This document shows positions 1 through 12,445 of a stretch of 12,445 nucleotides of DNA, piece after piece (positions within the stretch are counted from its first letter, which is position 1; each line of letters begins with the position of its first letter). Under the pieces are notes generated by a model. The model saw only the letters and a list, made by a program, of their open reading frames with translations, was not told where the DNA came from and ran no database searches. Where the stretch lies: the NCBI GenBank assembly GCA_046293555.1, contig JBKBOT010000005.1, positions 1 through 12,445 on the forward strand, written 5' to 3'. A program made the translations under genes and the position numbers. The stretch comes from Pyrobaculum sp. (GTDB lineage Archaea > Thermoproteota > Thermoprotei > Thermoproteales > Thermoproteaceae).

Positions 1-789
1 AGTGATGGCGCCGCTGGGACAACTGGCAGCAAGCCTCTCGGGATCGATCTCCCCGGCCTCCACCTTCTTTCTAAACAGCTCCTGATCTACATCCGGCGCG
101 CCCACCCACACCCCAATAAAGCCGAAGTCGGCACGGTGGACCGCTCTGGCGCAGTCAAATGGACAGCCGGAGAACTTAGCCTTGAACTTAAATGGGAACA
201 ACTGGTTTCCCAACCACTCGTGGATTTGCGGATGTGTTAAGAAGTAGTCTCTTGCGGCCAGGGTGTCATATAGCGCGAACTCGCATAGGGCGGGGCCCAC
301 ACAGGCCGCCAGCTCTCTTATCGTGTCGCCAGTACCCCCCACGTCTGTCCCCACCACATCTCTCAAGTAGTCAACTGCCTCGTCTGCCACCTCAGGCCTT
401 ATGGAGATAATCATCTGCCCCTGCTGGCCTGCCAGTTCTATCAGCCCAAGGCCGTACCTGTCTGCAAAATCCATCAGCTTCTTTAGCTTCTCTGTGGCGT
501 ATAGATAGCCAGAGGGCTGCCACACCCTGAAGTGTAGCTCCGCAATCGTGCCGTCTTTGGTACGCCGGGCGATAAAGCCGGTGTAGACATAACGTATTTT
601 CGCAGAGCCGGCTGCCCACATGGTCTTTCTAGCCGCCAGCCCCGCGGCGTATGCCTCTATGGGGTACTTGGTCTTCTTGAGCTCTGTGACGTGACTAGGC
701 CAGGGTCCCCCTTCATAATATTCAAGCAGCTCCATCCCCCTCTTGGCGTAGTCCTCCACCCGCTCCCCCTGCCTCTGGCTTGAAGCCAT
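1..789 (-). CDS. dsrA: Dissimilatory sulfite reductase alpha subunit, N-terminal 263 aa (continues past left edge)
   Basis: Not in the ORF track. Hand translation from ATG at 789 is open to base 1: MASSQRQGERVEDYAKRGMELLEYYEGGPWPSHVTELKK...HFRVWQPSG...DVGGTGDTIRELAACVGPALCEFALYDT...FPFKFKAKFSGCPFDCARA...CPSGAIT. It has the DsrA GPWPS motif, the siroheme-[4Fe-4S] motif CX5C (CVGPALC)...CX3C (CPFDC), the FPxKFKxK motif and the start of the ferredoxin domain. Confidence 0.95.
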   Translation of the reverse strand, partial: MASSQRQGERVEDYAKRGMELLEYYEGGPWPSHVTELKKTKYPIEAYAAGLAARKTMWAAGSAKIRYVYTGFIARRTKDGTIAELHFRVWQPSGYLYATEKLKKLMDFADRYGLGLIELAGQQGQMIISIRPEVADEAVDYLRDVVGTDVGGTGDTIRELAACVGPALCEFALYDTLAARDYFLTHPQIHEWLGNQLFPFKFKAKFSGCPFDCARAVHRADFGFIGVWVGAPDVDQELFRKKVEAGEIDPERLAASCPSGAIT

Positions 790-871
790 GGCTGAAACAC
801 GTTATGAAAAAATAAGACTTATTCTACATTTTTGGTAATAATGGTAAATAAGTATAAATGTGTTGGCTTTT
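790..871. promoter_or_regulatory. AT-rich divergent promoter region dsrA / hemD
   Basis: On the minus strand, CTTATT (816-811) lies 22-27 nt upstream of the dsrA ATG, preceded by AATAA. On the plus strand, TAAATA (845-850) lies 27 nt upstream of GTG 872. Contains the palindrome AATAAG-A-CTTATT (811-823). Confidence 0.7.
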
Positions 872-1615
872 GTGTGCAGGTGGACTGTGGTGATAACCTC
901 CGGGAGGCCCTCCAAGGCCGAGCTGTTAGCCAGGCTTGTACTTAAGGCAGGTTGCGACGTGGTCTATCTGCCGGCGGTAGAGGTGGAATCCGCCGAGTTG
1001 GGAGATGTGGCCGAATTAATGAGGTGGGCCGAGGTGGTTATCTTTCTCACAGGCCAGTCGGTATGGGGCCTTGCAGAGGGGTTAAAGGCGGAGGCGCTAC
1101 GTGAAAAAGTGGTATTGTGTAGGGGAAGCAAGGCTGCCGGCAACGTCAAAACCTATTTCGGCATTAACTGTATCAACGTGGGGGAAACCACAGAGGGGTT
1201 ACTGAGGGCAGATATCTACAGCGGGAGGAAGGTGTTAATCTCTTTCTACGGCGTGGTAGATCAAGAGCTTGTAGAAAAGATTAGAGAGAAGGCGGCTGAG
1301 GTGAGGGTGGTACAAGCCTACCGCACTAAGGCGACCCCTAGGGAAAACGCCATAGAGGCCGCAAGAAGGGCGGCGGCTGGGGGCCACATTTTGGTCTTCA
1401 CAAGCGCCCTAGGGGCCTCGGCCTTTTTCCAGACAGCAAAAGAGGTGGGGCTGTTAGAGGCGGTGGTGGATGCCGTCAATAGCGGCAAGTCGAAAATTGC
1501 GGCTATAGGGCCTGTGACCGAGAGGGAAGTTAGAAAATACGGCGTGGCGGAAGTAATTAAGCCAGAGAAGCCCTTCCTGTCCTATCTAGCTCAAGAACTT
1601 GCGAAGTTGTTTTGA
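872..1615 (+). CDS. hemD: Uroporphyrinogen-III synthase (HemD family)
   Basis: HemD-like motifs VVITS, VIFLTGQSV, LCRGSK, AYRT, LVFTSA, AAIGPVT, IKPEKP. Adjacent to siroheme-dependent dsrA. The ORF track starts at 860; GTG 872 fits the TATA spacing better. Confidence 0.8.
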   Translation: MCRWTVVITSGRPSKAELLARLVLKAGCDVVYLPAVEVESAELGDVAELMRWAEVVIFLTGQSVWGLAEGLKAEALREKVVLCRGSKAAGNVKTYFGINCINVGETTEGLLRADIYSGRKVLISFYGVVDQELVEKIREKAAEVRVVQAYRTKATPRENAIEAARRAAAGGHILVFTSALGASAFFQTAKEVGLLEAVVDAVNSGKSKIAAIGPVTEREVRKYGVAEVIKPEKPFLSYLAQELAKLF

Positions 1616-2238
1616 ATAATAACGTCGATAATTCTCCCCCCTGGAGAGACGTGGGCCTTTATGCCGTATTTCTCCAAGGCCACGGCGGGCCCCGCCGCCA
1701 CCACCACGGCGTTTTTCAAAACGTCAAGTTTAACCTCGGCGACAGCCGCCGCGGCCAGCCCGCTGAAGAAGACGTAAATCCCCCCAGGCGGCAGGGAGGT
1801 TAAGACGTCGCGGCGGGGTACAGCCCGATATGTAAAAAACTCGTAGACTCTACAGCTCTCCACAAGCGCCTCTGCCCTCTCGCCGTGGTGGAAAACCGTG
1901 GCGGCCACACAGCTGCTCACGGCGGCGGCTAGCTCCTCCGCGCTGTGGTAAACCAGCTGCGGCTTGACTCCAAAGACGTTTTGTATCATGACGGCGCCTT
2001 TGTCTCCCTCCGCCGTGGCCACCCTTTTGTTTCTCAAATCTAGCCACACCCCCTCCTCCCTCAGCCTATAGGCAGAACAGCCGGAGCCAAAGACCGCCAA
2101 GTCGCTTTCCTCCACTGCCTTAGCCACAGCCAGTCTGTCTATAGGCTCTGGCTGTAGTTCCAACACTGGGGCGACCACCACCTCTCTGAATACCCGTCTA
2201 AACGCCCCGCCGGCTTTCTCGCTAGTTACTACAATCAC
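1591..2238 (-). CDS. Divergent, shortened HemD-like paralog (215 aa)
   Basis: Colinear HemD-type motifs IVVTS, APVLELQP, VFGSG, TYRAVP, VFFSG, VVAAGP..ALEKYGI. The GTG start overlaps the upstream stop (GTGA, 2238-2235). Confidence 0.65.
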   Translation of the reverse strand: MIVVTSEKAGGAFRRVFREVVVAPVLELQPEPIDRLAVAKAVEESDLAVFGSGCSAYRLREEGVWLDLRNKRVATAEGDKGAVMIQNVFGVKPQLVYHSAEELAAAVSSCVAATVFHHGERAEALVESCRVYEFFTYRAVPRRDVLTSLPPGGIYVFFSGLAAAAVAEVKLDVLKNAVVVAAGPAVALEKYGIKAHVSPGGRIIDVIIQNNFASS

Positions 2239-2483
2239 GAGACGCCAATTTTTTCACAGATAGATAACATTTTCAAAGGCCCTATGGGCTTAGCTCCCGG
2301 CCTTATGTCGCCTGGTAGATATGTACAGACGTAGATATCCCACCCGGGGGGCACCTCGGCCTTTCTCCCCTCTCCAGCTAGAATTATCGCCATGTCTCCC
2401 ACATCTCTAAACACCTCCAGTAGCCTCCCGTCGAGATTGGGGGATAGGACCAATAGGCAGAGGGTGTATTTCTTCTCCGTCAC
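2235..2483 (-). CDS. Small DsrE/DsrF-like putative sulfur-relay protein (about 82 aa)
   Basis: GTGA overlaps at both ends (2483-2480 with the tusA stop; 2238-2235 with the next gene) support a real gene. The pattern LCLLVLSP / IILAGEG / IYVC / GAKPIG resembles DsrE/F beta-strand motifs (inference). Alternative TTG start at 2501. Confidence 0.55.
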   Translation of the reverse strand: MTEKKYTLCLLVLSPNLDGRLLEVFRDVGDMAIILAGEGRKAEVPPGWDIYVCTYLPGDIRPGAKPIGPLKMLSICEKIGVS

Positions 2484-2713
2484 TTCGTTCTCTTGATCCA
2501 AAATCTAATCCACCCGCCCTCTAGCTCCTCTATTTTCATAATTTCGTTTTTTGTGAACTTTGCCCAAACCCTTAGATCTTCTTTAGCGCATACGTCGTCA
2601 GTTATTATCTCCAATATGCCGCCTACTGGCACCTCAGAGAGCTCCCTATTTACAAGCACAGGCCCTAGGCAGTGAGACCCCGAGATCTTTATAGATCTGT
2701 GAGGGGCGTCCAT
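2480..2713 (-). CDS. tusA: TusA/SirA-family sulfur carrier protein
   Basis: 77 aa. GSHCLGPV (variant of CPxP), GGILEIITDD, EDLRVWAK and C-terminal RFWIKR match the TusA pattern. Confidence 0.8.
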   Translation of the reverse strand: MDAPHRSIKISGSHCLGPVLVNRELSEVPVGGILEIITDDVCAKEDLRVWAKFTKNEIMKIEELEGGWIRFWIKRTK

Positions 2714-2789
2714 ATGACGCCCCAGTTATGTAGTAATAAAGGTTGTTAACTAGGTGGTTGGTAACATATTTTAGCGCCATTTCTTCTCT
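2714..2789. promoter_or_regulatory. Divergent promoter region tusA operon / DUF1152 gene
   Basis: Minus-strand TTTATT (2740-2735) lies 22-27 nt upstream of the tusA ATG. Two GTTnnnAAC elements at 2742-2750 and 2757-2765. Plus-strand CATATTTTA (2765-2773) upstream of ATG 2790. Confidence 0.7.
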
Positions 2790-3719
2790 ATGGCTCTCCA
2801 CCTGGCTATTGGGGGCGGTGGGGATGTGGTCATGGCCGCCGTGTTGGCTGGAGGCGGCGAGGTGGGGCACATCCCGTGGGAGAGATATACGGTAGACCCA
2901 GAGCCCGGGCCGGTGCCGCTGTCTAGTTTTATAAACGCCGCGGTTTTTGACGACGGGGTGGCTATCGCCACTGGGGGTTCCCACGTGGAAAGAGGCGGGA
3001 GGAGGTTTAAAACTCAGGGCATCTGTGTGGCTGAAACTTTGGGAAAATCTATCTACGTTGTTGATAGCTATCTGCCCCCGTCGAGGCTGGCTAGATCTCT
3101 AGCCCGCTTTAAGAAGGTGGTGGGTGTCGACGTTGGTGGAGACGTCTTGGCTGTAGGCTGCGAGGAGGAAGTGGGAAGCCCCCTGTCTGACGCCTACGGG
3201 CTAGCCCTATTGGCCATGTTGAAAAAACTGGGGGTAGAGACAGAGGTTGTGGTCATGTCCCCAGGCGCCGACGGGGAGTTAGATAGGGAGTACTTCCTCC
3301 AGAGGGCGGCAGAGGTGGCCAGAATGGGGGGCTTCCTGGGCTCTGTGGGCCTATCTAAAGGACAGCTGGAGCTCCTCTCGGCTTTAACGCGGCGTTGTGT
3401 CACAGAGGCCTCCACAGCTGCCGCCAGGGCGGCCTTTGGGGAGTGGGGGGAGTTTCCCATTAGGGGCGGGGCGCGGCGTGTGAAGATAGACCTTTTCTCC
3501 ACCGTGGGGTTTAGGTTTGACCCAGAGGCGTTGCTTAAAGTAAACAAGGCGGCCCGTATTGTATATGAGAGAGACGCCTCGATGGACAAGGCGGCGGAAC
3601 TCCTCCTGGCTGCAGGCATCCCCACGGAGTGGCACCTAGAGACGTTATTAAGCAAGGGCGTGGAGTATAAAGACGCCGTCTCTACCCTAAAAAAACTTAA
3701 GAGATGCCACAATGTGTAA
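2790..3719 (+). CDS. DUF1152 family protein
   Basis: 309 aa with GGGGD near the N-terminus, GVDVGGDVL, SPLSDA, PGADGEL and TEAS motifs typical of DUF1152. Confidence 0.75.
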   Translation: MALHLAIGGGGDVVMAAVLAGGGEVGHIPWERYTVDPEPGPVPLSSFINAAVFDDGVAIATGGSHVERGGRRFKTQGICVAETLGKSIYVVDSYLPPSRLARSLARFKKVVGVDVGGDVLAVGCEEEVGSPLSDAYGLALLAMLKKLGVETEVVVMSPGADGELDREYFLQRAAEVARMGGFLGSVGLSKGQLELLSALTRRCVTEASTAAARAAFGEWGEFPIRGGARRVKIDLFSTVGFRFDPEALLKVNKAARIVYERDASMDKAAELLLAAGIPTEWHLETLLSKGVEYKDAVSTLKKLKRCHNV

Positions 3720-5054
3720 CACCTTCTGTATCACCTCCGTCGGGCTTCTCCCCAATACTGTAATCACGGGCTCTTTCCCCCAGTCCCCCCAATCTACTAT
3801 AAGGTCTGGCGTCTTGCCGCCAGTTTGTCTATACGCCTCCTCTACAATCCACCCCATTGTTGCCCCCTCCCTCCTCTTGACCTCTTCAGGCTCTAGCCTC
3901 CTGTCTATATAGGCTATTGTATACCCCGCCGCCTTAGCTCTCTCTATATACTCTTCTCTCAGCCTTATGTTCATAGCCGCCCTTATGTCGGGATCTCTTT
4001 TTAACACAGCCAAGATCTTTCTGGCCACGTGGTCACTTGCCCCAAAGGCCGGGGGGCCTGAGGGCTTGGCTTTCCCCATATAGTTCACAATTCTGCCAGG
4101 CACTGCGGCCACGTCTTCTTTGTTTTGAGCATATCTGGGGTTAATCGCATAGCCGAGATTGCTCTGTACTTCTGGAATGGCGCTTGCTAACAAATCGCCA
4201 TGTTTTTCCACAAGCTCTAGCGCTTTGGTTATCTCTTGGTATACACGCCACCTTTCAGCCGATATCTCAACCCACGCCGCGGGGTTCACCGGCCAGTGCC
4301 CCTTGCCTCTAGCTACCCCGTATTTAATAGCGGTGTAGATAAACTCCTTTGCCGTCTTTATGGCCTCCAGCGGGTCCAGCCCCTTGGCTAGCCCCGCGGC
4401 TATGGCTGCAGAGTAGGCACAGCCAGTGCCGTGTGTAGCTCTGGAGTCAAGTCTCGGCGTCTTGAGGTGGTGGAAAGCCCCCTGGCGGTACACCACGTCT
4501 ATAGCCTCGTCGGTCTCGAGATGGCCGCCCTTCACCACCACTGTGTCTACGCCGTATTCCCTATGGATGTACCCCGCGGCTTTCTCCGCGTCTTTGAGAG
4601 ACCTTATCTCAAAACCCGCCAGCCTCTCTGCCTCGTGTCTATTTGGGGTCACCACCCTGGCGGTGGGGAGCAGCCGCCTTTTTAACACCTCCACTGCGTC
4701 TTGATCTATCAGCGGGGCGCCAGATTTAGCCACCATCACTGGGTCCACCACAAGGGGGAAGCCCAGAGACCTGGCTGTGTCTGCCACCACCTCTATGAGC
4801 TCTCTAGTGCCCAACATGCCGGTTTTCCCCGCGTCTATCCCCATGTCGTCCCACACGGCTACGATCTGTTCCCTCACTAGAGCTGGGGGTAAACACTCCA
4901 CGGCCCTCACCTCATATGTATTCTGCGCGGTGACGCAGGTAAGCGCCGTGGCTCCATGGACGCCAAATGCGGCAAAAGTCTTCACGTCTGCATGTATGCC
5001 AGCCCCGCCGCCGGAATCTAGCCCAGCTATTGTGATGGCCACCCGCCAAGACAT
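3687..5054 (-). CDS. thiDN: Bifunctional HMP/HMP-P kinase - thiamine-phosphate synthase (ThiD-ThiN fusion)
   Basis: ThiD motifs TIAGLDSGGGAGIHAD, TAQNT, KTGML, VDPVMVAKSG, TPN, KGGH, HGTGC. C-terminal ThiN motifs IPEVQSN, VAAVPGRI, FGASDH, GDWGKEP. Confidence 0.95.
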   Translation of the reverse strand: MSWRVAITIAGLDSGGGAGIHADVKTFAAFGVHGATALTCVTAQNTYEVRAVECLPPALVREQIVAVWDDMGIDAGKTGMLGTRELIEVVADTARSLGFPLVVDPVMVAKSGAPLIDQDAVEVLKRRLLPTARVVTPNRHEAERLAGFEIRSLKDAEKAAGYIHREYGVDTVVVKGGHLETDEAIDVVYRQGAFHHLKTPRLDSRATHGTGCAYSAAIAAGLAKGLDPLEAIKTAKEFIYTAIKYGVARGKGHWPVNPAAWVEISAERWRVYQEITKALELVEKHGDLLASAIPEVQSNLGYAINPRYAQNKEDVAAVPGRIVNYMGKAKPSGPPAFGASDHVARKILAVLKRDPDIRAAMNIRLREEYIERAKAAGYTIAYIDRRLEPEEVKRREGATMGWIVEEAYRQTGGKTPDLIVDWGDWGKEPVITVLGRSPTEVIQKVLHIVASLKFF

Positions 5055-5083
5055 AAGTACCTAATCTTTTCTAGATAAAAACT

Positions 5084-5791
5084 TTACCGTCTTATCTCGC
5101 GGAGAAGCGGAATTTCTCTCAACATGTCCTCAGAGACGTAACTCCAGTAAATCCCAGTGGGCTTTCTATCCACACGACGTGTGTAAATAACCTCCCTGCT
5201 CGTGGCCACAATGTCTACAACTAGGTCGAATGGCTCTAGCGGAATCTCCTCTTCTACCAGCTGGAGGGGGTGCACGGTGGTAGCCACCGGCGTGTTTTCA
5301 CTAACTTTTCCAAACGTGTAGAGAATACCCCACTCGATTTCTGAATATCCATGCGATTTGCCCACACGGCGGCCGGTATGGGGATTTACGGCAACAGACC
5401 CGACGACAACTAGGTCTACGGGAGGGATCTCCCAAGGCTTGACCGGCCTCCCCCATTTGAACATGCCGGAAATAGTTGACGCCTCGCGGTAAGCCCCTAT
5501 GGTCGAGGGGTCTAACAGGTAGAACCCCTCTCTAATTCTCGGCGTGGGCACAATTAACAGCTTGCCTCCAGACAGGGCGGCGTGGCGGCAATATCTCTGC
5601 GGCGCGTCTGGATTTATCTTCACAACTCTAGCCCTCCGAAACTCCACAGTGGAGGCCAACTGTCTACAGGCCTCTTCAGAGTTCTTAAAATTGGGAATCC
5701 GCCCGTAGACGGGACGGGGGAAGTCAGCCACGCCCCTCTCTTCAAGAAGTCTCCAAATTCTCTCCCTAATAGACTGTTTCACATCTTTCAC
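5084..5791 (-). CDS. 5-formyltetrahydrofolate cyclo-ligase paralog (COG0212 / MTHFSD-like)
   Basis: KQSIRERIW, FPRPVYGRIPNF, KINPDAPQ, VPTPR, DLVVVGSVAV, GRRVGK.HGYSEIEW, TTVHPLQ, DLVVDIV. TATA-like TTTTATAT on the minus strand at 5817-5810. Confidence 0.88.
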   Translation of the reverse strand: MKDVKQSIRERIWRLLEERGVADFPRPVYGRIPNFKNSEEACRQLASTVEFRRARVVKINPDAPQRYCRHAALSGGKLLIVPTPRIREGFYLLDPSTIGAYREASTISGMFKWGRPVKPWEIPPVDLVVVGSVAVNPHTGRRVGKSHGYSEIEWGILYTFGKVSENTPVATTVHPLQLVEEEIPLEPFDLVVDIVATSREVIYTRRVDRKPTGIYWSYVSEDMLREIPLLREIRR

Positions 5792-5860
5792 AAGAAGTAT
5801 AGAGGGTTAATATAAAACGCCCCGATAGACATGTCGTGTTGGCTTGCGGCTCTATTTGAG

Positions 5861-6916
5861 TCATGCGAGTGGTGGGTGTGGAGCCAACAGGAGGACATAT
5901 ATGCCGACTGCTATAAACACCATGGCGCCTATGGGTAGTGCCAGTTTTATCCATTCTCTAAATCCTATTAACAACACGCCTGCGAGAACGATGTTAGGCA
6001 CGTTGCCGGGAATAGTTAGGCCTCCTGATAGCACTAGTGAAATCAAGAAACTCCTCAAGACCTCTACCTCCATTTCTGGAGTTACTAACGCCGCCACTAG
6101 GGTGGCGTTGTCTGCCACAGCCGAGAGGAGGCCGAAGATGTATAAAACCTCCTTGCCGAATCCGGCCACCACAGAGGCTAGAGGTTTGAAGAACTCTCCC
6201 AAAATCGTGAGGGCGAAGATAAATAGAAATATCTTAAACGCCCGTATGAAGACCTCTCGTAACTCGGGCTCGTAAGGCTCTATCTCCACTCCAAGCTTGT
6301 GTAGTCTCTTGAGTGTAATATAGGCATAGATGGCGAAAAACAGAACTATTATGGCCACGGCGTCTAGAAGCACGTGCACCAGGTAGAAAAATCCTTGTTT
6401 GAGTTTAGCCACCGCGATGGTAGATAGCGGCTCGCCGATAGGTAACAACGCGGCGCCGGCGCCTATGGCGAAAGCTCCATATACCGCAGCTCTCGCCTTG
6501 TATTCATGCGGGGCTTTTGCAAAACCCAGAAGTTCTGCCAACACCGCCGCCGCCACGATGGCTGAAATCACGCTACTTGACATGCCAAATAGAAATATCA
6601 AGATGGCTAAAACGGCGGGTTTCGCTATGACGTCCGCCTTTACGGCTAGCTTATCTCTAAAGTAATAAAACGTCAACCCAGCTATCAACACCACCTGCGT
6701 AATTCCAATAGGGATATAGCCCAACCCCGGCTGGTAGACTGCAACTGGGTGGAGGAGGGCCTCTTTAAGTAATGAAATACTCCAAAGGCCGCCGATAGTT
6801 GCCGCAATTAGCGACATCACGAAAAAGAAGGCCTCCAGGTTGTGTTCTACCTTTTTCGACACCAGCGGTGGGACTAGTAGCAACACTAAGAAGACCACTT
6901 GGAGTAGGAGATCCAT
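5861..6916 (-). CDS. DUF1646 family membrane protein, putative ion transporter (IT superfamily-like)
   Basis: 351 aa, highly hydrophobic. KKVEHNLE, SSVISA, GAALLPIGEPLSTI, SAVADNATL, GGLTIPGNVPNI. Confidence 0.75.
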   Translation of the reverse strand: MDLLLQVVFLVLLLVPPLVSKKVEHNLEAFFFVMSLIAATIGGLWSISLLKEALLHPVAVYQPGLGYIPIGITQVVLIAGLTFYYFRDKLAVKADVIAKPAVLAILIFLFGMSSSVISAIVAAAVLAELLGFAKAPHEYKARAAVYGAFAIGAGAALLPIGEPLSTIAVAKLKQGFFYLVHVLLDAVAIIVLFFAIYAYITLKRLHKLGVEIEPYEPELREVFIRAFKIFLFIFALTILGEFFKPLASVVAGFGKEVLYIFGLLSAVADNATLVAALVTPEMEVEVLRSFLISLVLSGGLTIPGNVPNIVLAGVLLIGFREWIKLALPIGAMVFIAVGIYVLLLAPHPPLA

Positions 6917-7022
6917 AGGTTGTGCAAAAAGATAACATCTTTTAAAGTTGATTACGGCTCCCCTTGTGCCGTATTAAAAAATTTTCGGTATAGAGTTTAA
7001 ATAGTTGTGGGTTTTGGGGGTC
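6917..7022. promoter_or_regulatory. Divergent promoter region DUF1646 / APC permease
   Basis: TTTAAA (6941-6946) lies 25-30 nt upstream of ATG 6916. TTTAAATA (6996-7003) lies 27 nt upstream of GTG 7023. Inverted repeats at 6927-6943 and 6953-6973. Confidence 0.7.
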
Positions 7023-8396
7023 GTGGAAAACACCTCTGAGGAGCCGCCAGATAGGCGGCTAAAAAGAGTCTTGGGAGTTTTTGACACATATGCGTTAGTT
7101 CATGCAGACGTACAGAGCACGTTTTACTTCTTGGCAGGCTTCATCGCGCTGGCGGCTGGGGGATTTGCGTTCCTAAGTACCATATATGGCGTCTTGTTGT
7201 TAGCAGCCATAGCGCTGATTTATGGAGAGATGGCCGCACGATTCCCAAAAGCGGGGGGCTCTTATATTTACGTCACATATGCCTTCGGCGGGGCGGCTGG
7301 ATATCTCGCCGCCTGGCTATTAGCGCTTGACCAAGCCATCATGATTGGCTACGGCGTGATTGACGCGGCTAAGATCTTCAACAAGGTGTCTGGACTCTCA
7401 GAGGTGGGGCTCGCCGTTGTTTTCTCAACGGCGATTTTCGTCCTCACGCTACTTGGCGTCAAGAAGTCTGCAAACGTGGCAAAGACCTTTGCCGCCATGG
7501 ACTTAGCCCTCGTGGCGACATTGATCGCAACCGCGCTGGCTTTACACCCGGCGTCCCCGCCGTTCTTCAAGTGGGGCGGCATAGAGGGGGTCAACTTGCT
7601 GCTAGCCTTCTCCCTCCTATCTAGGGGGTTTACCGGCATAGACGCGGTGGGCCAGCTGGCTGGGGAGGTAAAAAAGCCCCGCGTCTATATACGTAGGGCC
7701 ATGTGGACACTTGTGGCTATAGGCGCCATCCAGGGCCTCGGACTTATGGCTGCAATAACCTCAGCCCTCACCCCGACAGAGCTTAAAGACCCCGCGATAG
7801 CCCCTCTGTACCTGGCGGAAAAGATACACCCAGCTGTGTTTTACCTCATGGCTTTTAACATCTTCGCCGTTATGTTAATGGCGGCGTTGACTGGATATCT
7901 GGCCTTCTCCCGCCTTCTATATAGATTTGCGGAATCCGGCCTCCTGCCGGAAGCCTTTTCTAGGCTTCATAACAGGTTCAAGACGCCATATATACCGCTG
8001 GCGCTAGCCTACCTAATATCGCTGACGCTAGTGTACATAGGGGAAGTCGAGGTGATCCTGGCCATATATGCCATAGGGTCGTTAATAAATTACCTCGTGG
8101 TGTCTCTAGCGTTGGCCAAAATGTCGAGGAGAGGTCTCAACACCTTCGCCGTTGGGGGATTTGTATGGGTTGCCGTCTTCCTAATCCCTCTAGGCATAGC
8201 GCTGGCGCTATTAGAAAAGTATAGATACATATGGGTCCTCGCCGTCTGGATGGCTATAGGCGCCGTCTTGTATAAACGGAGGTATGTCGTAGCCCTGTAT
8301 AGAAACCTAATAGATGTAAGCATGACGTCAATAAGGGCGATGCTAATTGCGGCTAGAAAAGAGCTTTTCTATCTGCAAAGAGGAAGGCGGCTATAG
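7023..8396 (+). CDS. APC family amino acid permease
   Basis: About 12 hydrophobic segments; LKRVLG, YGEMAARFPKAGGSYIY, FTGID..QLAGEVKKP, SRLLY....GLLP..F..LH.RFKTP. The ORF track's TTG at 7005 abuts the TATA box, so GTG 7023 is preferred. Confidence 0.9.
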   Translation: MENTSEEPPDRRLKRVLGVFDTYALVHADVQSTFYFLAGFIALAAGGFAFLSTIYGVLLLAAIALIYGEMAARFPKAGGSYIYVTYAFGGAAGYLAAWLLALDQAIMIGYGVIDAAKIFNKVSGLSEVGLAVVFSTAIFVLTLLGVKKSANVAKTFAAMDLALVATLIATALALHPASPPFFKWGGIEGVNLLLAFSLLSRGFTGIDAVGQLAGEVKKPRVYIRRAMWTLVAIGAIQGLGLMAAITSALTPTELKDPAIAPLYLAEKIHPAVFYLMAFNIFAVMLMAALTGYLAFSRLLYRFAESGLLPEAFSRLHNRFKTPYIPLALAYLISLTLVYIGEVEVILAIYAIGSLINYLVVSLALAKMSRRGLNTFAVGGFVWVAVFLIPLGIALALLEKYRYIWVLAVWMAIGAVLYKRRYVVALYRNLIDVSMTSIRAMLIAARKELFYLQRGRRL

Positions 8397-8865
8397 TCTT
8401 GCCGTCTTTTATCGCACCTTTGTCTATCAGCTCTAAGACCTCCCTAGGGCTTAGGAGGGCCAACTCCATGTCTTCCTCTCCGGGATCTCTCTCGCCGACC
8501 CCCACGTGTTCTAGCTGGTTTGTGAAATATATCCTTACAAGCTCGTTGCTAACCCCGGGCGCGGGGTATATGTCAAGCATGTGGCTGAGCTGTAGCGGCT
8601 TATAGCCTGTCTCCTCTACCATCTCCCTCACGGCGGCCTCCTGTGGGTCTTCCCCAGCCTCCAGCGTGCCTGCCGGCATTTCTAAAGTCCACTGGCCTAG
8701 AGCTGGCCTAAACTGTTTTACCAAAATCGCCCTGTCGCCCAGTAGGGCCAATATCGCCACGGCGCCGGGGTGGACCAGGTATTCCCCCCAGACCGATCTG
8801 TCTCCCACACGGCGGGCTCTTTTGACAAGAGTAAACTTCCTCCCCCTGTAGATTATCTCATCCAC
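8353..8865 (-). CDS. Nudix hydrolase, ADP-ribose pyrophosphatase-like
   Basis: Nudix box GTLEAGEDPQEAAVREMVEETGY; HPGAV, KQFRP, downstream YPAPG and IKDGKT as in NudF-type enzymes. Confidence 0.9.
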   Translation of the reverse strand: MDEIIYRGRKFTLVKRARRVGDRSVWGEYLVHPGAVAILALLGDRAILVKQFRPALGQWTLEMPAGTLEAGEDPQEAAVREMVEETGYKPLQLSHMLDIYPAPGVSNELVRIYFTNQLEHVGVGERDPGEEDMELALLSPREVLELIDKGAIKDGKTIAAFLFADRKALF

Positions 8866-8932
8866 GGGCCCCTATTTATGCCATAGATAAAGATTTCTGA
8901 GAAGAGATATATCTCTATGTCGGCTTTCATCT
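8866..8932. promoter_or_regulatory. Divergent promoter region Nudix / SDR
   Basis: Minus-strand TTTATCT (8891-8885) upstream of GTG 8865. Plus-strand GATATAT (8906-8912) 27 nt upstream of ATG 8933, inside a 14-bp palindrome. Confidence 0.6.
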
Positions 8933-9628
8933 ATGCGGCTTGTGGGAAAAAACGTCGTAGTTGTAGGCGTCGGCCCCGGCTTGGGCTCCGCCGTGGTTTA
9001 CCTCCTGCTTAAAGAGGGGGCCTCTGTATACGCCTTCGCGCGAACTGTGGAGTTTCTCAGACAGCTCGAGGCCGAGTATTCAAGATATGGCTTTGTCAAG
9101 ACGGGGGCTAGGGACTTCTCCAAGCTACAGGAGACCCCCACGGAGGTGGACGGCGTGGTACACGGCTTGGTGGTAACCGCGGGGGGCTACGTCAGCGGCA
9201 GTATCGACGAGCTTAGAGAGGGGGAGCTAGAAGACATGTTGTCTCGTAACCTCAGGGCCCATCTCTATGCGGTGAAGGCCTTCCTCCCGTTGATGCGACA
9301 AGGCTCCTCCATAGTGCTCACCTCGTCTATAGGTGGGACGTATGCAGTCTGGCCTAGACACGTGGCTTATGTGGCCTCTAAGGCTGCCCTAGCCAAAGCC
9401 GTAGAGGCGCTGGCTGCAGAGCTGTTAGATAGGGGCATTAGGGTAAACGCCGTGGCGCCAGGCGGGATGACTAGAGACCTCAAGCCCGGGCGTGGATACA
9501 GCTTGGGTGACCCCCAGGCCCCGCCAGAAGAGGTGGCCAAGGTGGTTGTCTGGCTCCTAACTGAGGAGGCGAGTTGGGTGACGGGGGCAGTGATCCCAGT
9601 AGACGGGGGGAGGAGGTTTAAAAAGTAG
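8933..9628 (+). CDS. Short-chain dehydrogenase/reductase (classical SDR)
   Basis: GVGPGLG nucleotide-binding motif, catalytic Ser (TSS), YVASK (YxxxK), IRVNAVAPG, VTGAVIPVDGG. Confidence 0.92.
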   Translation: MRLVGKNVVVVGVGPGLGSAVVYLLLKEGASVYAFARTVEFLRQLEAEYSRYGFVKTGARDFSKLQETPTEVDGVVHGLVVTAGGYVSGSIDELREGELEDMLSRNLRAHLYAVKAFLPLMRQGSSIVLTSSIGGTYAVWPRHVAYVASKAALAKAVEALAAELLDRGIRVNAVAPGGMTRDLKPGRGYSLGDPQAPPEEVAKVVVWLLTEEASWVTGAVIPVDGGRRFKK

Positions 9629-9643
9629 GGCTTTTCCCCGCCC

Positions 9644-10597
9644 GTGGCTCTCCCCACGCTTGGGCCAATCGGCGTGGTGCCCGGCATTGTTTTAACTATC
9701 TTGTCTGGACTTCTGATCGAACAGCTGGTTCATTACATCTCGTGGCGCTACCAGAGGGCAGCTGTGGGGGTGGCCGCCATCTTCGCGCCGATAATAACGT
9801 CAAGCCCCGAGCTAGCTATATTCATCCTGGCGTTGTACTACGGCCATGTGGAAATCGCGTGGGGCTCTATCGTGGCGCAGCCCTTCATGGCCTCCACGGT
9901 GATATACCCCGTGGTGGTAATAACGGCGTTAGCCGCATGGGCGTTAGGAATGAGGCGGTATAGACTGCCCCACGTCCACAGGATTGTAGCTGTGCCCCTC
10001 CTGGTTTTCACCATCCCCCTTCTTCCCATCCTTTTTCTACACCCGGAGAGATATGGCATATACGGCCAGCTGTATGGACTGGGGCTTCTAGCTGTCTACT
10101 TCCTATATGCGAAATTCATGTTGAGAGAGGAGGAGGTAAAAAAAGCCGCCGCGCGGCTGTGGCTTAAACATCCAGCCCTACAGACTGTAGCAGCCATGGC
10201 CACTATATACCTCGGGGCTGAGTGGATTGTAGATGGGATAAAGGAGCTGGGAGCTGCCTTTGGGCTAGACAAGTTGGCCCTATCGGTAGTGCTCGTGCCT
10301 ATTGCCACCGTCGTGCCTGAATCCATCGTGGGCCTTATCTTTATAGCCAGGGGGAAAGACGACGAGGGCGTAGGCGTTATCGTGGGGGAGAAGGCTCTTT
10401 ATAGCACCTTCTACCCCGGCCTCGCCATGGCTCTGGGGGTATACAGCCTAGAGCCTGCGGCAGCCACGGCGTTAACTATAGCCATAGTGGTATCTCTACT
10501 AGAGGCCACGGCGGTTTGGTTTGGCTACTTTGGCCTCACGGCGCCCATAGGGCTGGCGGGCTATCTTTACTACCTACATAACGTCTTGGGGCTCTAA
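9644..10597 (+). CDS. CaCA (Na+/Ca2+ exchanger-like) membrane protein
   Basis: About 10 TM segments in two halves with alpha-repeat-like TSSPE and TVVPE motifs. TTTAAAAA (9617-9624) lies 27 nt upstream of the GTG. Confidence 0.75.
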   Translation: MALPTLGPIGVVPGIVLTILSGLLIEQLVHYISWRYQRAAVGVAAIFAPIITSSPELAIFILALYYGHVEIAWGSIVAQPFMASTVIYPVVVITALAAWALGMRRYRLPHVHRIVAVPLLVFTIPLLPILFLHPERYGIYGQLYGLGLLAVYFLYAKFMLREEEVKKAAARLWLKHPALQTVAAMATIYLGAEWIVDGIKELGAAFGLDKLALSVVLVPIATVVPESIVGLIFIARGKDDEGVGVIVGEKALYSTFYPGLAMALGVYSLEPAAATALTIAIVVSLLEATAVWFGYFGLTAPIGLAGYLYYLHNVLGL

Positions 10598-10625
10598 GTT
10601 TTAAAACCAGTCTTTTTATCCCTAT

Positions 10626-10877
10626 ATGCATAAAGACAAGTCGGTGGGCATTGGGCTTATGGCTGTAGGCATTGTGGGGATTCTGCTATACGGCTGGCTG
10701 TTATTCTTCTCGCCTTGGAGCCAGCTGGTTTTACAGTTGACAGCCTTTCTGGCCGTTGGGGGCGTTTTAGCCATATTGGCCTGGGTGGGCTACGCCCTAG
10801 CCACCACTCCGCCTCCAAAACCCATAGAGGAGATCGAGAGAGAGGTACAAAAGGCCCTAGAGGAAAGCCGGCAGTAA
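10626..10877 (+). CDS. Small 2-TM membrane protein with TTPPPKPIEEIE cytoplasmic tail, function unknown
   Basis: 83 aa, two hydrophobic helices plus a charged helical tail. Own TATA TTTTAAAA (10599-10606) 27 nt upstream of the ATG. Confidence 0.8.
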   Translation: MHKDKSVGIGLMAVGIVGILLYGWLLFFSPWSQLVLQLTAFLAVGGVLAILAWVGYALATTPPPKPIEEIEREVQKALEESRQ

Positions 10878-10879
10878 CG

Positions 10880-11776
10880 TCAAGATTTCTCTTTTTGTGT
10901 AGAGGGCTCCACGTGTACTGTCACCTCGCCGCCTAGTTCTCTTTTTAACACGTCTTCCACCCTGTCTGCAATCTCGTGTGCCTCTCTGACGGTAAGGTTT
11001 TCGTCTATGGCTATCACCACCTCTGCGTGATATATACTACCCGCCTTACGTATTTTTATAGATTTTACAGAATCTACCCCACCTATCTGCGACACCTTAG
11101 ATAACGCCCTTTTGGCCACCTCAGGGGGGGCGTAGTCCATTAGCTCCATCACGGTAGTTCTCAACAGCCTTAAGCTTAACGTCACGAAATATGTGGCTAT
11201 AACTGCCGCCAGCATTATGTCTACCAGAGGGCCCCACTGTGTGAAGAGCTGTGGCATATACTCCATGGCCACGTAGCCAAACACAAGAAATGTGAGTAGA
11301 GCCGACGTGGAGGCTAGATCTGTGGCGAAGTGGAGGGCATCTGCCTCCAGCGCTCTTGACACTCCTCTAAAACGCCTCAAGACAGTCACGCGGTTGTAGT
11401 CTATAAGGATCGCCGACGCCAGTATTGCCATAGAGAGGGGGGTGGGGACATAGGGCTCCCAGCTAATAGCCTTTTTAACTGCCTCATATGCCACAAAAAA
11501 GACCGAAGCTATGACGGCTAGCGACCCGCCGACGCCGCCAAGAGTCTCTGCCTTGTGGTGACCATATGGGTGTTCTAAATCTGGGGGCTTTAGGCTTACT
11601 CTCACCGCGATATAGGTGATAGCCACTGCCAGGAGGTCTACCGCAGAGTGTAACGCATCGGCCAGTACCGCCACAGACAGGCTCTGCGTCCACGCCAACG
11701 TTTTTAAGACGGCCACTAGGATGCCTGCAAGGAGGGATATAAAGGCGGCTCTCAGCTTATCCACGTCTCTCCACAC
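10880..11776 (-). CDS. Cation diffusion facilitator (CDF, FieF/CzcD-like) metal transporter
   Basis: ADALHSAVD (TM2), HPYGHHKAE, ADALHFATD (TM5), C-terminal dimerisation domain AHEIADRVE...VHVEP. The start may be GTG 11764. Confidence 0.92.
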   Translation of the reverse strand: MWRDVDKLRAAFISLLAGILVAVLKTLAWTQSLSVAVLADALHSAVDLLAVAITYIAVRVSLKPPDLEHPYGHHKAETLGGVGGSLAVIASVFFVAYEAVKKAISWEPYVPTPLSMAILASAILIDYNRVTVLRRFRGVSRALEADALHFATDLASTSALLTFLVFGYVAMEYMPQLFTQWGPLVDIMLAAVIATYFVTLSLRLLRTTVMELMDYAPPEVAKRALSKVSQIGGVDSVKSIKIRKAGSIYHAEVVIAIDENLTVREAHEIADRVEDVLKRELGGEVTVHVEPSTQKEKS

Positions 11777-12445
11777 ACCTGTCGGCAGCTCGTTTGAACT
11801 CCTTAACGGCCGCCGGGTTTTTCATAAGGGTGGTGCCAATTAACACCCCTTTGGCGTATAGCTCACACGCCTTCTCTACCTCCTCAACTCTAGACACGCC
11901 GCTCTCGATTATGAAATCCACGTCTCCCCGTAGCGCCTTGGCGATCTCAAAGGCTCTGGCTAGACTTACTTCAAGCGTCTTTAAATCCCGGGCGTTTATA
12001 CCCAACATATCCCCCCAGCTGGCGGCCTCTCGCGCGTCCTGAATGTTGTCCACCTCTACAATTGGCGTTATGCCCAGCCTTGAGGCATATTCGGCAAGCT
12101 CCATCGCCTTTTCTCTCCCCACAAGCCTATATATAATCAACACGGCGTCTGCCCCATAGCCAAAAGCCATATCTATCTGCCTCTTGTCAATTATAAAGTC
12201 TTTCATTAATACAGGCCTATAGGCTTTAGCCATGGGGATAAAACGGTAGTCTCCTAAAAACCAGATGGGCTCTGTCAACACAGAGAAGGCGGCGGCGTGG
12301 GGGTAAAGCTCCGAGAAGTAAACCCATGGCGGCAGATCTAGCCTAATTACGCCACGTGGAGAGGCCCTCTTATATTCCGCAATAATTCCAAACTCTCCTA
12401 ACGACTTGGCGAAATTTACAACTGGCGTCGTTCTCGCCGGAGGCA
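11757..12445 (-). CDS. trpC: Indole-3-glycerol phosphate synthase (5' end beyond right edge)
   Basis: The frame is open upstream of the ORF-track start, with the first full codon at 12443: PPARTTPVVNFAKSLGEFGIIAEYKRASPRG...FSVLTEP..F.G...PVLMKDFI...GADAVLII...GINARDL...IIESG...LIGTTLM. Confidence 0.95.
   Translation of the reverse strand, partial: PPARTTPVVNFAKSLGEFGIIAEYKRASPRGVIRLDLPPWVYFSELYPHAAAFSVLTEPIWFLGDYRFIPMAKAYRPVLMKDFIIDKRQIDMAFGYGADAVLIIYRLVGREKAMELAEYASRLGITPIVEVDNIQDAREAASWGDMLGINARDLKTLEVSLARAFEIAKALRGDVDFIIESGVSRVEEVEKACELYAKGVLIGTTLMKNPAAVKEFKRAADRCVERRG

Follow-up and report, generated by a model that had tools for sequence, protein, structure and literature searches.

What do a variant sulfur-carrier gene, an orphan cysteine-protein gene and a second hemD-like gene do side by side next to the sulfite reductase gene dsrA in the hot-spring archaeon Pyrobaculum? 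We addressed this question in a stretch of 12,445 nucleotides from Pyrobaculum sp. (GenBank assembly GCA_046293555.1, contig JBKBOT010000005.1, positions 1 to 12,445 of the forward strand), the whole of which is called the window below. An original prediction, made from the letters of the sequence, had described the three genes as a coupled tusA, "mini-DsrE" and hemD-like operon that may define a module for sulfur trafficking or siroheme maturation in archaeal Dsr systems. The explanation that we prefer, tentatively and at a little under an even chance, is that one operon here joins two accessories of the Pyrobaculum dsr/siroheme island, namely a pair of sulfur carriers that work through cysteines and a HemD paralog of the siroheme branch. 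The conserved unit is tusA with the small cysteine gene; the HemD-like gene is a frequent neighbour and only sometimes an operon partner. Papers are cited by their PMC identifiers for the parts of each that were available.

Gene order and overlaps

We scanned 15 open reading frames (ORFs) of the window with Pfam and NCBIfam. The genes at issue and their immediate neighbours on the dsrA side are the following.

2480 to 2713, minus strand: tusA, encoding a variant TusA-family sulfur carrier of 77 amino acids, with an ATG start (Pfam PF01206).
2235 to 2501, minus strand: the orphan small cysteine protein (the "mini-DsrE" of the original prediction), 88 amino acids from a TTG at 2501 or 82 amino acids from a GTG at 2483.
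1591 to 2238, minus strand: the HemD-like gene, 215 amino acids, with a GTG start; a paralog with the fold of uroporphyrinogen III synthase (UroS).
860 to 1615, plus strand: the bona fide hemD (Pfam HEM4, 89.2 bits, E 2.9e-25).
1 to 789, minus strand: the 5' part of dsrA, encoding the N-terminal 263 amino acids, with the gene running off the window (TIGR02064, E 1.1e-64).

The plus strand reads "tcac" at 2480-2483 and again at 2235-2238, which corresponds to a minus-strand GTGA at both junctions. Both of the predicted GTGA sites are thus present. The stop/start overlap is certain where the small gene meets the HemD-like gene, but at the first junction the small gene probably starts at the TTG at 2501 rather than at the GTG at 2483, and its overlap with tusA is then 22 nt, because its homologs begin about six codons earlier. 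The N-terminus is longer than in the GTG-start version in four of the five aligned homologs (P0005, P0017, P0018 and P0019), and three of those four, together with the Pyrobaculum oguniense ortholog, begin with "MDEV" or "MDAV". The P. oguniense ortholog likewise has 88 codons, and the TTG at 2501 of the window sits at the equivalent start; in that species the overlap with tusA is 34 nt by our own reading. There is no intergenic space among the three genes under either start choice. Overlaps of four nucleotides are frequent in archaeal operons.

The distance to dsrA had been put at about 0.8 kb, and it is 802 nt (789 to 1591), but the gap holds the bona fide hemD on the opposite strand, which had gone unmentioned. 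This hemD is convergent with the HemD-like gene, their 3' ends overlapping by 25 nt, and divergent from dsrA. The three genes look real and constrained in comparison with P. oguniense: the small gene (87 codons) had a dN/dS of 0.17 and the HemD-like gene one of 0.26, their synonymous sites being near or at saturation, and tusA, whose synonymous sites are saturated, had a pN of 0.18 and a pS of 0.81.

The TusA variant

The assignment of tusA was borne out. Its product matched PF01206 with 54.6 bits (E 9.5e-15, cut-off 28.6) and retains the motif cysteine; against the NCBIfam equivalog for E. coli-type TusA it scored 24.2 bits and did not reach the cut-off of 78. The N-terminal active-site cysteine of TusA proteins lies in a CPxP motif. 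The corresponding Cys15 of the window protein is in "CLGP", a variant in which the first proline of the usual motif is replaced. Cys15 aligns with the cysteine of "GSYCPGP" in PDB 1pav and with the CPxP cysteine of two canonical TusA paralogs of P. oguniense. Both C15 and C42 are invariant in the orthologs (six of six). C42, in the sequence "DDxCAKEDL", has no counterpart in the two canonical P. oguniense paralogs. The subtype is rare, with 3 homologs among 3 candidates in a word-index search. We infer that the variant TusA would carry sulfane sulfur on Cys15.

The small cysteine protein

The small protein had no Pfam or NCBIfam family match, Pfam giving nothing at E<=0.01, and a search against PDB sequences at E<=10 returned 0 matches. 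When six family members were compared with Pfam at E<=10 there was no DsrE-family match, only one chance-level match to PhoU_div, and the hhalign probability of the small-protein profile against two Pyrobaculum DsrE-family proteins was 0.1%. The label "mini-DsrE" therefore finds no support in Pfam, NCBIfam, PDB sequences or hhalign, and the fold match described below is not significant. A candidate origin as a fragment of a HemD domain was rejected (hhalign probability 0.5%), and hhalign detected no profile similarity between the small protein and the HemD-like protein.

The family is very small. We found 3 proteins in a search of 5.8 billion clusters and 5 members at E<=0.001 in an exhaustive HMMER search of 1.84 billion representatives, both counts including the window's own protein. 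Across six sequences of 40-67% identity there are 13 invariant columns, among them C9, R40, E43, C53-T54-Y55 and C76 (numbering of the 82-residue version), so that three cysteines are fully conserved.

An AF2 model built on a shallow alignment had a pLDDT of 76.1 and a pTM of 0.66; the pLDDT of the five models lay between 54 and 76. The best model predicts a small alpha/beta sandwich with the order beta-alpha-beta-beta-beta-alpha. Foldseek gave 0 matches to the PDB at E<=0.001 with this model; DsrE-like folds were matched at E 0.18-0.45. The best match by TM score, from a model of moderate confidence, was 3mc3, a Sulfolobus DsrE/DsrF-like protein (TMq 0.63, probability 0.93, E 0.18), and further non-significant fold matches were 3pnx, a putative DsrE (TMq 0.61), and 1jx7, YchN (TMq 0.52). 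"DsrE-like" is permissible as a fold-level lead from the model, not as a family assignment.

In the model C53-T-Y follows the strand at 49-53, and S14-P-N and R40/E43 follow strands 1 and 2, which places these conserved residues on one edge of the sheet. Cys53, at the C-terminal end of predicted strand 3, is in a plausible active-site position. The active-site cysteine of DsrE lies at the end of the third strand or the start of the following helix.

The HemD-like protein and the true HemD

The identification of the third gene as a hemD-like paralog of a tetrapyrrole enzyme also stood. The window protein scored 23.9 bits (E 2.7e-5) against HEM4/HemD (PF02602), short of the Pfam cut-off of 27.5, its orthologs at the three related loci described below exceeded that cut-off (L001 35.6, L002 51.0 and L003 53.1 bits), and precomputed PF02602 annotations were present on nine of nine other members of the family. 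The AF2 model of the window protein had a pLDDT of 87.1, and Foldseek placed a UroS structure at each of its ranks 1-12 (E 3.1e-11 to 1.7e-6, TMq up to 0.76). Aligned by hhalign with the three neighbouring true HemDs, the profile of the HemD-like family gave 98% probability over 210 columns at 25% identity, and the tyrosine of the true HemDs aligned with Y137, a residue invariant across all 10 paralogs compared. A maximum-likelihood tree built from 16 rows put 13 paralogs and 3 true HemDs in separate clades, each with 100/100 support; long branches were flagged. The HemD-like gene is a diverged paralog with the UroS fold and not an ortholog of the housekeeping hemD. A word-index search placed 10 proteins in the family among 5935 candidates.

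The ten paralogs share invariant TAEG and FHHGE motifs, Y137, C110 and C129. S6, S52-G53, T75-A76-E77-G78, H117-H118-G119-E120, F157-F158 and A182-G183 are invariant and lie at or just after the C-terminal ends of predicted strands. In UroS structures the tetrapyrrole-binding cleft is presumably at the C-terminal ends of the strands.

The invariant C110 and C129 precede neighbouring strands on the side opposite to the cleft. These two cysteines might be linked in a structural disulfide, a type of bond that is reportedly frequent inside Pyrobaculum cells.

The true hemD of the window matched NCBIfam UroS models down to E 5.6e-20, all of them below the equivalog cut-offs, and it adjoins dsrA at the same position in L002 and L003. 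UroS has no established essential residues, one tyrosine being the only residue implicated in the available part of PMC7242693. The hemD of P. aerophilum lies in a heme gene cluster, and the available part of that paper makes no mention of a paralog (PMC3004389).

Related loci

We scanned one genome for each of 185,579 species with two peptide patterns taken from the HemD-like alignment. The patterns matched 77 stretches, of which 3 were confirmed; distant HemD-like relatives would be missed, because the scan was limited to these two patterns. The confirmed loci, mapped by tblastn and Pfam, are in P. oguniense TE7 (L002) and in two Pyrobaculum metagenome-assembled genomes (MAGs; L001 and L003).

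L002 and L003 share one gene order: small gene (leftward), tusA (leftward), HemD-like gene (rightward), hemD (leftward), dsrA (rightward) and dsrB (rightward). In the window and in L002 the tusA and small genes overlap on one strand, and in L003 they are adjacent. In both relatives transcription of the pair and of the HemD-like gene diverges, each side having its own TATA-like box, found by eye, in a gap of about 75 nt. In L001 (783-2545) a 4-nt overlap ties the HemD-like gene to the end of a DUF1646 permease gene. Linkage of the HemD-like gene thus varies from co-directional in the window to divergent in P. oguniense and L003, and in the L001 stretch the pair is absent. The predicted three-gene coupling does not hold as a conserved module, nor is the module general to archaeal Dsr, with only 3 loci confirmed.

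A further arrangement comes from the nearest relatives of the window proteins, P0006 for the small protein and P0008 (81% identical) for the HemD-like protein, which are both listed on a contig of 3803 nt. The odd C-terminus of P0006 equals the start of the HemD-like protein of the window in a shifted frame, from which we infer that the co-directional overlap of the small gene and the HemD-like gene probably also occurs on that contig. The small-protein and HemD-like families are tiny, and their members with a named source are all from Pyrobaculum.

L002 (1-20642) is a 20-kb sulfur/siroheme island with two dsrAB-type pairs. The N-terminal regions of its two DsrA proteins are 83% and 53% identical to that of the window, the closer one being encoded at 11518-12306 (tblastn). 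The island also holds genes for DsrC, DsrE, a tetrapyrrole methylase, a CobB/CbiA-type amidase (DsrN-like), a DsrK-like protein and an SQR-like flavoprotein with a DUF1641 protein, as well as two canonical tusA genes. L003 holds DsrK-like, DsrN-like and methylase genes together with those for DsrE, DrsE_2 and DsrC.

In L003 (11546-13010 and 9516-9722) the similarity to DsrA ends at about residue 126, dsrB is in two ORFs, and, in our own reading of the frame, no start codon for the small gene follows the stop of tusA and its Cys9 is replaced; the tusA, HemD-like gene and hemD of this locus are intact. The damage to dsr and the small gene could be gene decay or an error of MAG assembly or sequencing. 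A TusA coupled to a cysteine protein beside Dsr, as originally predicted, is found in the window, L002 and L003, but in the last of these dsrAB looks degraded. As to occurrence independent of dsr, which the original prediction had named as a refutation, the HemD-like gene has no sulfur genes near it in the L001 stretch, and the three loci with the tusA pair are dsr/sulfur islands.

Surroundings of the operon

The dsrA part of the window also matches Pfam NIR_SIR_ferr and NIR_SIR. On the other side of tusA lie the following features.

2714 to 2789, no strand: divergent intergenic region between tusA and the DUF1152 gene, 76 nt, A/T-rich, with TATA-like boxes found by eye.
2790 to 3719, plus strand: DUF1152 gene (279 bits), divergent from tusA.
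3687 to 5054, minus strand: fused thiD/thiN gene, from the Pfam/NCBIfam scan.
5861 to 6916, minus strand: DUF1646 permease gene, 3.1 kb upstream of tusA on the same strand.

Beyond thiD/thiN, the Pfam and NCBIfam matches run in the order 5-formyltetrahydrofolate cyclo-ligase, the DUF1646 permease and then unrelated housekeeping genes. The 3' end of the DUF1152 gene overlaps the 3' end of thiD/thiN by 33 nt, and a tblastn search found no DUF1152 homolog in L001-L003. In the divergent region, candidate TATA-like boxes lie about 20-27 nt before each start codon, a minus-strand "TTTATTA" at about 2740-2734 and a plus-strand ATATTTTA at about 2766-2773 (by eye), a spacing that would fit leaderless transcripts.

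Several other candidates were tried and rejected. A scan for bacterial-type promoters and terminators was set aside as inapplicable to archaeal promoters, and an alignment of three tusA upstream regions was uninformative as to a shared operator. Rfam returned 0 matches to RNA genes in the window at gathering thresholds, and PADLOC 0 defence-system families for 4 proteins. A search for inverted repeats as a trace of inversion gave only two short internal pairs, neither of which flanks the segment with tusA and the small gene.

Comparison with known sulfur relays

In the TusA-TusBCD relay of Escherichia coli and the DsrEFH-TusA relay of Allochromatium vinosum, the TusA cysteine passes sulfur to the cysteine of a small flavodoxin-like protein. 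The partners in TusBCD and DsrEFH are heterohexamers of three paralogous subunits, whereas here there is a single small gene. The A. vinosum relay is mentioned in PMC13293266, which also describes DsrEFH type II in organisms with reductive dsrAB, where transfer of sulfur from TusA to a DsrE cysteine and on to DsrC has been shown in vitro. Archaeal examples of DsrEFH type II sit with dsrMK or qmoAB and bacterial ones with yeeE/yedE, and Pyrobaculum is not mentioned for this system in the available part of the text (PMC13293266).

The window resembles DsrEFH type II and the "YTD" cluster (yedE, tusA and a dsrE-like gene with two small genes) in having tusA in a putative co-transcribed unit with the gene for a small cysteine-containing protein, alpha/beta in its model, in an organism with reductive-type dsrAB (PMC13293266). 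It differs from them in that one small gene, not three syntenic genes for an E, F and H heterotrimer, lies beside tusA in the window, L002 and L003, that the small protein has no detectable similarity to DsrE models, and that a HemD paralog is attached. There is also no YeeE/YedE-family match among the 15 ORFs scanned in the window.

In Metallosphaera cuprina, with dsrE3A-dsrE2B-tusA, thiosulfonate passes from DsrE3A to TusA (PMC4175335). As in that system, an archaeal TusA and a DsrE-type partner stand side by side here, the DsrE type being a fold lead and the cysteine-based chemistry a putative one. The M. cuprina system differs in belonging to a sulfur oxidiser and in its linkage to Hdr-like and lipoamide genes (PMC4175335). 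In the available description its DsrE proteins are full-size Pfam DsrE members, whereas the partner here has 82-88 amino acids and matches no DsrE model.

Like HemD (PF02602; PDB 1wd7, 1wcx, 3d8t and others), the HemD-like protein has a two-domain fold, profile homology over its full length and the aligned tyrosine. It differs from the adjacent true HemD in its separate clade, in an identity of 25-27% and in its length (215 against 251 amino acids), and its invariant His-His-Gly-Glu, Thr-Ala-Glu-Gly and two cysteines are lacking in the neighbouring true HemDs.

A proposed function and its alternatives

In the explanation that we prefer, Cys15 of the variant TusA would be loaded with sulfane sulfur in the form of a persulfide, or perhaps of a thiosulfonate, and by analogy with the relays above this sulfur would be exchanged from cysteine to cysteine with Cys53 of the small protein. 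The pair would serve the neighbouring DsrC/DsrAB in the respiration of sulfite, thiosulfate or sulfur. The HemD-like protein, to judge from its invariant residues and modelled fold, may bind or convert a siroheme-branch tetrapyrrole. Its gene adjoins hemD, and in relatives it is near those for a tetrapyrrole methylase and a DsrN-like amidase; since the true hemD adjoins, the tetrapyrrole (siroheme-branch) context is the simplest reason for the position of the paralog. The two units would have been joined into one probably leaderless operon in the lineage of the window.

A number of points weigh against this explanation. Neither sequence nor profile comparisons relate the small protein to DsrE, DsrF or DsrH (PF02635, PF13686 and PF04077), and in the non-significant fold search dihydrofolate reductase (DHFR) chains outranked DsrE by E-value (0.089, TMq 0.50). 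Among the five close versions of the small gene, P0006, with 59 amino acids, and the L003 copy have a shortened N-terminus; both are from MAGs, so decay or sequencing error is possible. The window's HemD-like protein itself falls below the Pfam cut-off of 27.5, and its catalytic competence is undecidable from sequence because of the lack of established essential residues in UroS, as far as the available part of PMC7242693 goes. The presence in L003 of a degraded dsrAB with an intact tusA and HemD-like gene argues against a strict dependence on DsrAB, and L001 contains no tusA, small or dsr gene within 1.8 kb upstream and 10 kb downstream of its HemD-like gene. The operon is very rare, while archaeal-type dsrAB is listed in 7 Pyrobaculum, 2 Vulcanisaeta and 1 Caldivirga species in the available part of PMC4351914. 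Finally, what the analysis shows is the structure of the genes, the family and fold assignments, the rarity and the neighbourhoods; that sulfur is loaded and passed on, that a tetrapyrrole is bound and that Dsr is involved are deductions from sequence, models and analogy.

The pair could instead act in general cytoplasmic sulfur trafficking, such as cofactor or tRNA thiolation or thiol/disulfide chemistry, and lie beside dsr by shared island history only. We consider this unlikely. TusA proteins are multifunctional, with roles in tRNA thiolation and molybdenum cofactor synthesis, which supports such a reading, as does the intact tusA of L003 next to an apparently degraded dsrAB. The second invariant cysteine of TusA, C42, would fit dithiol/disulfide chemistry, and the distance to a thiD/thiN gene is 1 kb in the window and about 4.6 kb in L003. 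However, an opposite-strand gene separates thiD/thiN from the pair and the position of thiD/thiN is not conserved, the extreme rarity of the pair would be odd for a housekeeping role, and all three loci that bear the pair are dsr/sulfur islands.

The three genes could also form one machine, in which the HemD-fold protein, instead of making uroporphyrinogen III, carries out a metal- or sulfur-dependent step on the siroheme of DsrAB, or chaperones it, with TusA and the small protein feeding or controlling its work. This would account for the stop/start overlap of the small gene and the HemD-like gene in the window, for the same arrangement probably present on the 3803-nt contig with P0006 and P0008, and for the adjacency of the genes in three of four loci (window, L002 and L003); a second plain UroS looks redundant given the true hemD next door, and the charged invariant cleft residues (His-His-Gly-Glu and Thr-Ala-Glu-Gly) are absent from the neighbouring true HemDs. 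The pair is nevertheless divergent from the HemD-like gene in L002 and L003, each with its own TATA-like box, the HemD-like gene of L001 is coupled to a DUF1646 permease gene with the pair absent from the stretch examined, and the two proteins share no profile similarity. We regard a single machine as decidedly improbable, and less probable still its more specific form, in which the HemD-fold protein would no longer be a UroS and would perform or chaperone a metal- or sulfur-dependent siroheme step for DsrAB, served by a dedicated two-cysteine TusA and by the three-cysteine orphan as a minimal single-subunit relative of the DsrE-type carriers.

The small ORF might also be a remnant, in decay or without enzymatic activity and possibly no more than a translational coupler or structural adaptor, so that only tusA and the HemD-like gene would be meaningful. 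This is very improbable: the protein is tiny, an orphan without a family match, short in two of five close relatives and modelled with moderate confidence (pLDDT 76, five models from 54 to 76), but its gene has a dN/dS of 0.17 over 87 codons, 88 codons in both the window and L002, and 13 invariant columns with three cysteines in six sequences down to 40% identity.

Significance

Among the papers searched there was no publication combining UroS with TusA, and the module is not described in the available main text of the Pyrobaculum and TusA literature that was consulted (PMC10504309, PMC3654217 and PMC4175335; supplements aside). We have rated the finding as a putative variant of a relay between TusA and a partner, together with what appears from sequence to be an undescribed family of HemD paralogs. 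Its ecological weight is limited because the distribution is very narrow, comprising few Pyrobaculum lineages, with some copies apparently degraded. This suggests that the operon is a rare, lineage-specific addition that can be dispensed with, rather than a core step in the respiration of sulfite.

Sulfur relays of the TusA/DsrE kind are by now being discovered alongside reductive-type DsrAB, which blurs the line between sulfur oxidation and sulfur reduction (PMC13293266). Should the Pyrobaculum pair prove to pass on sulfur, no smaller relay of this kind would be known. It would then also be an archaeal relay made from a protein family that escapes the profiles, a sign that surveys of sulfur metabolism by sequence overlook some carriers. 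The HemD paralog has a charged and invariant cleft, and its gene lies beside that of a siroheme enzyme; it is a candidate for a role in tetrapyrrole handling that has not yet been described.

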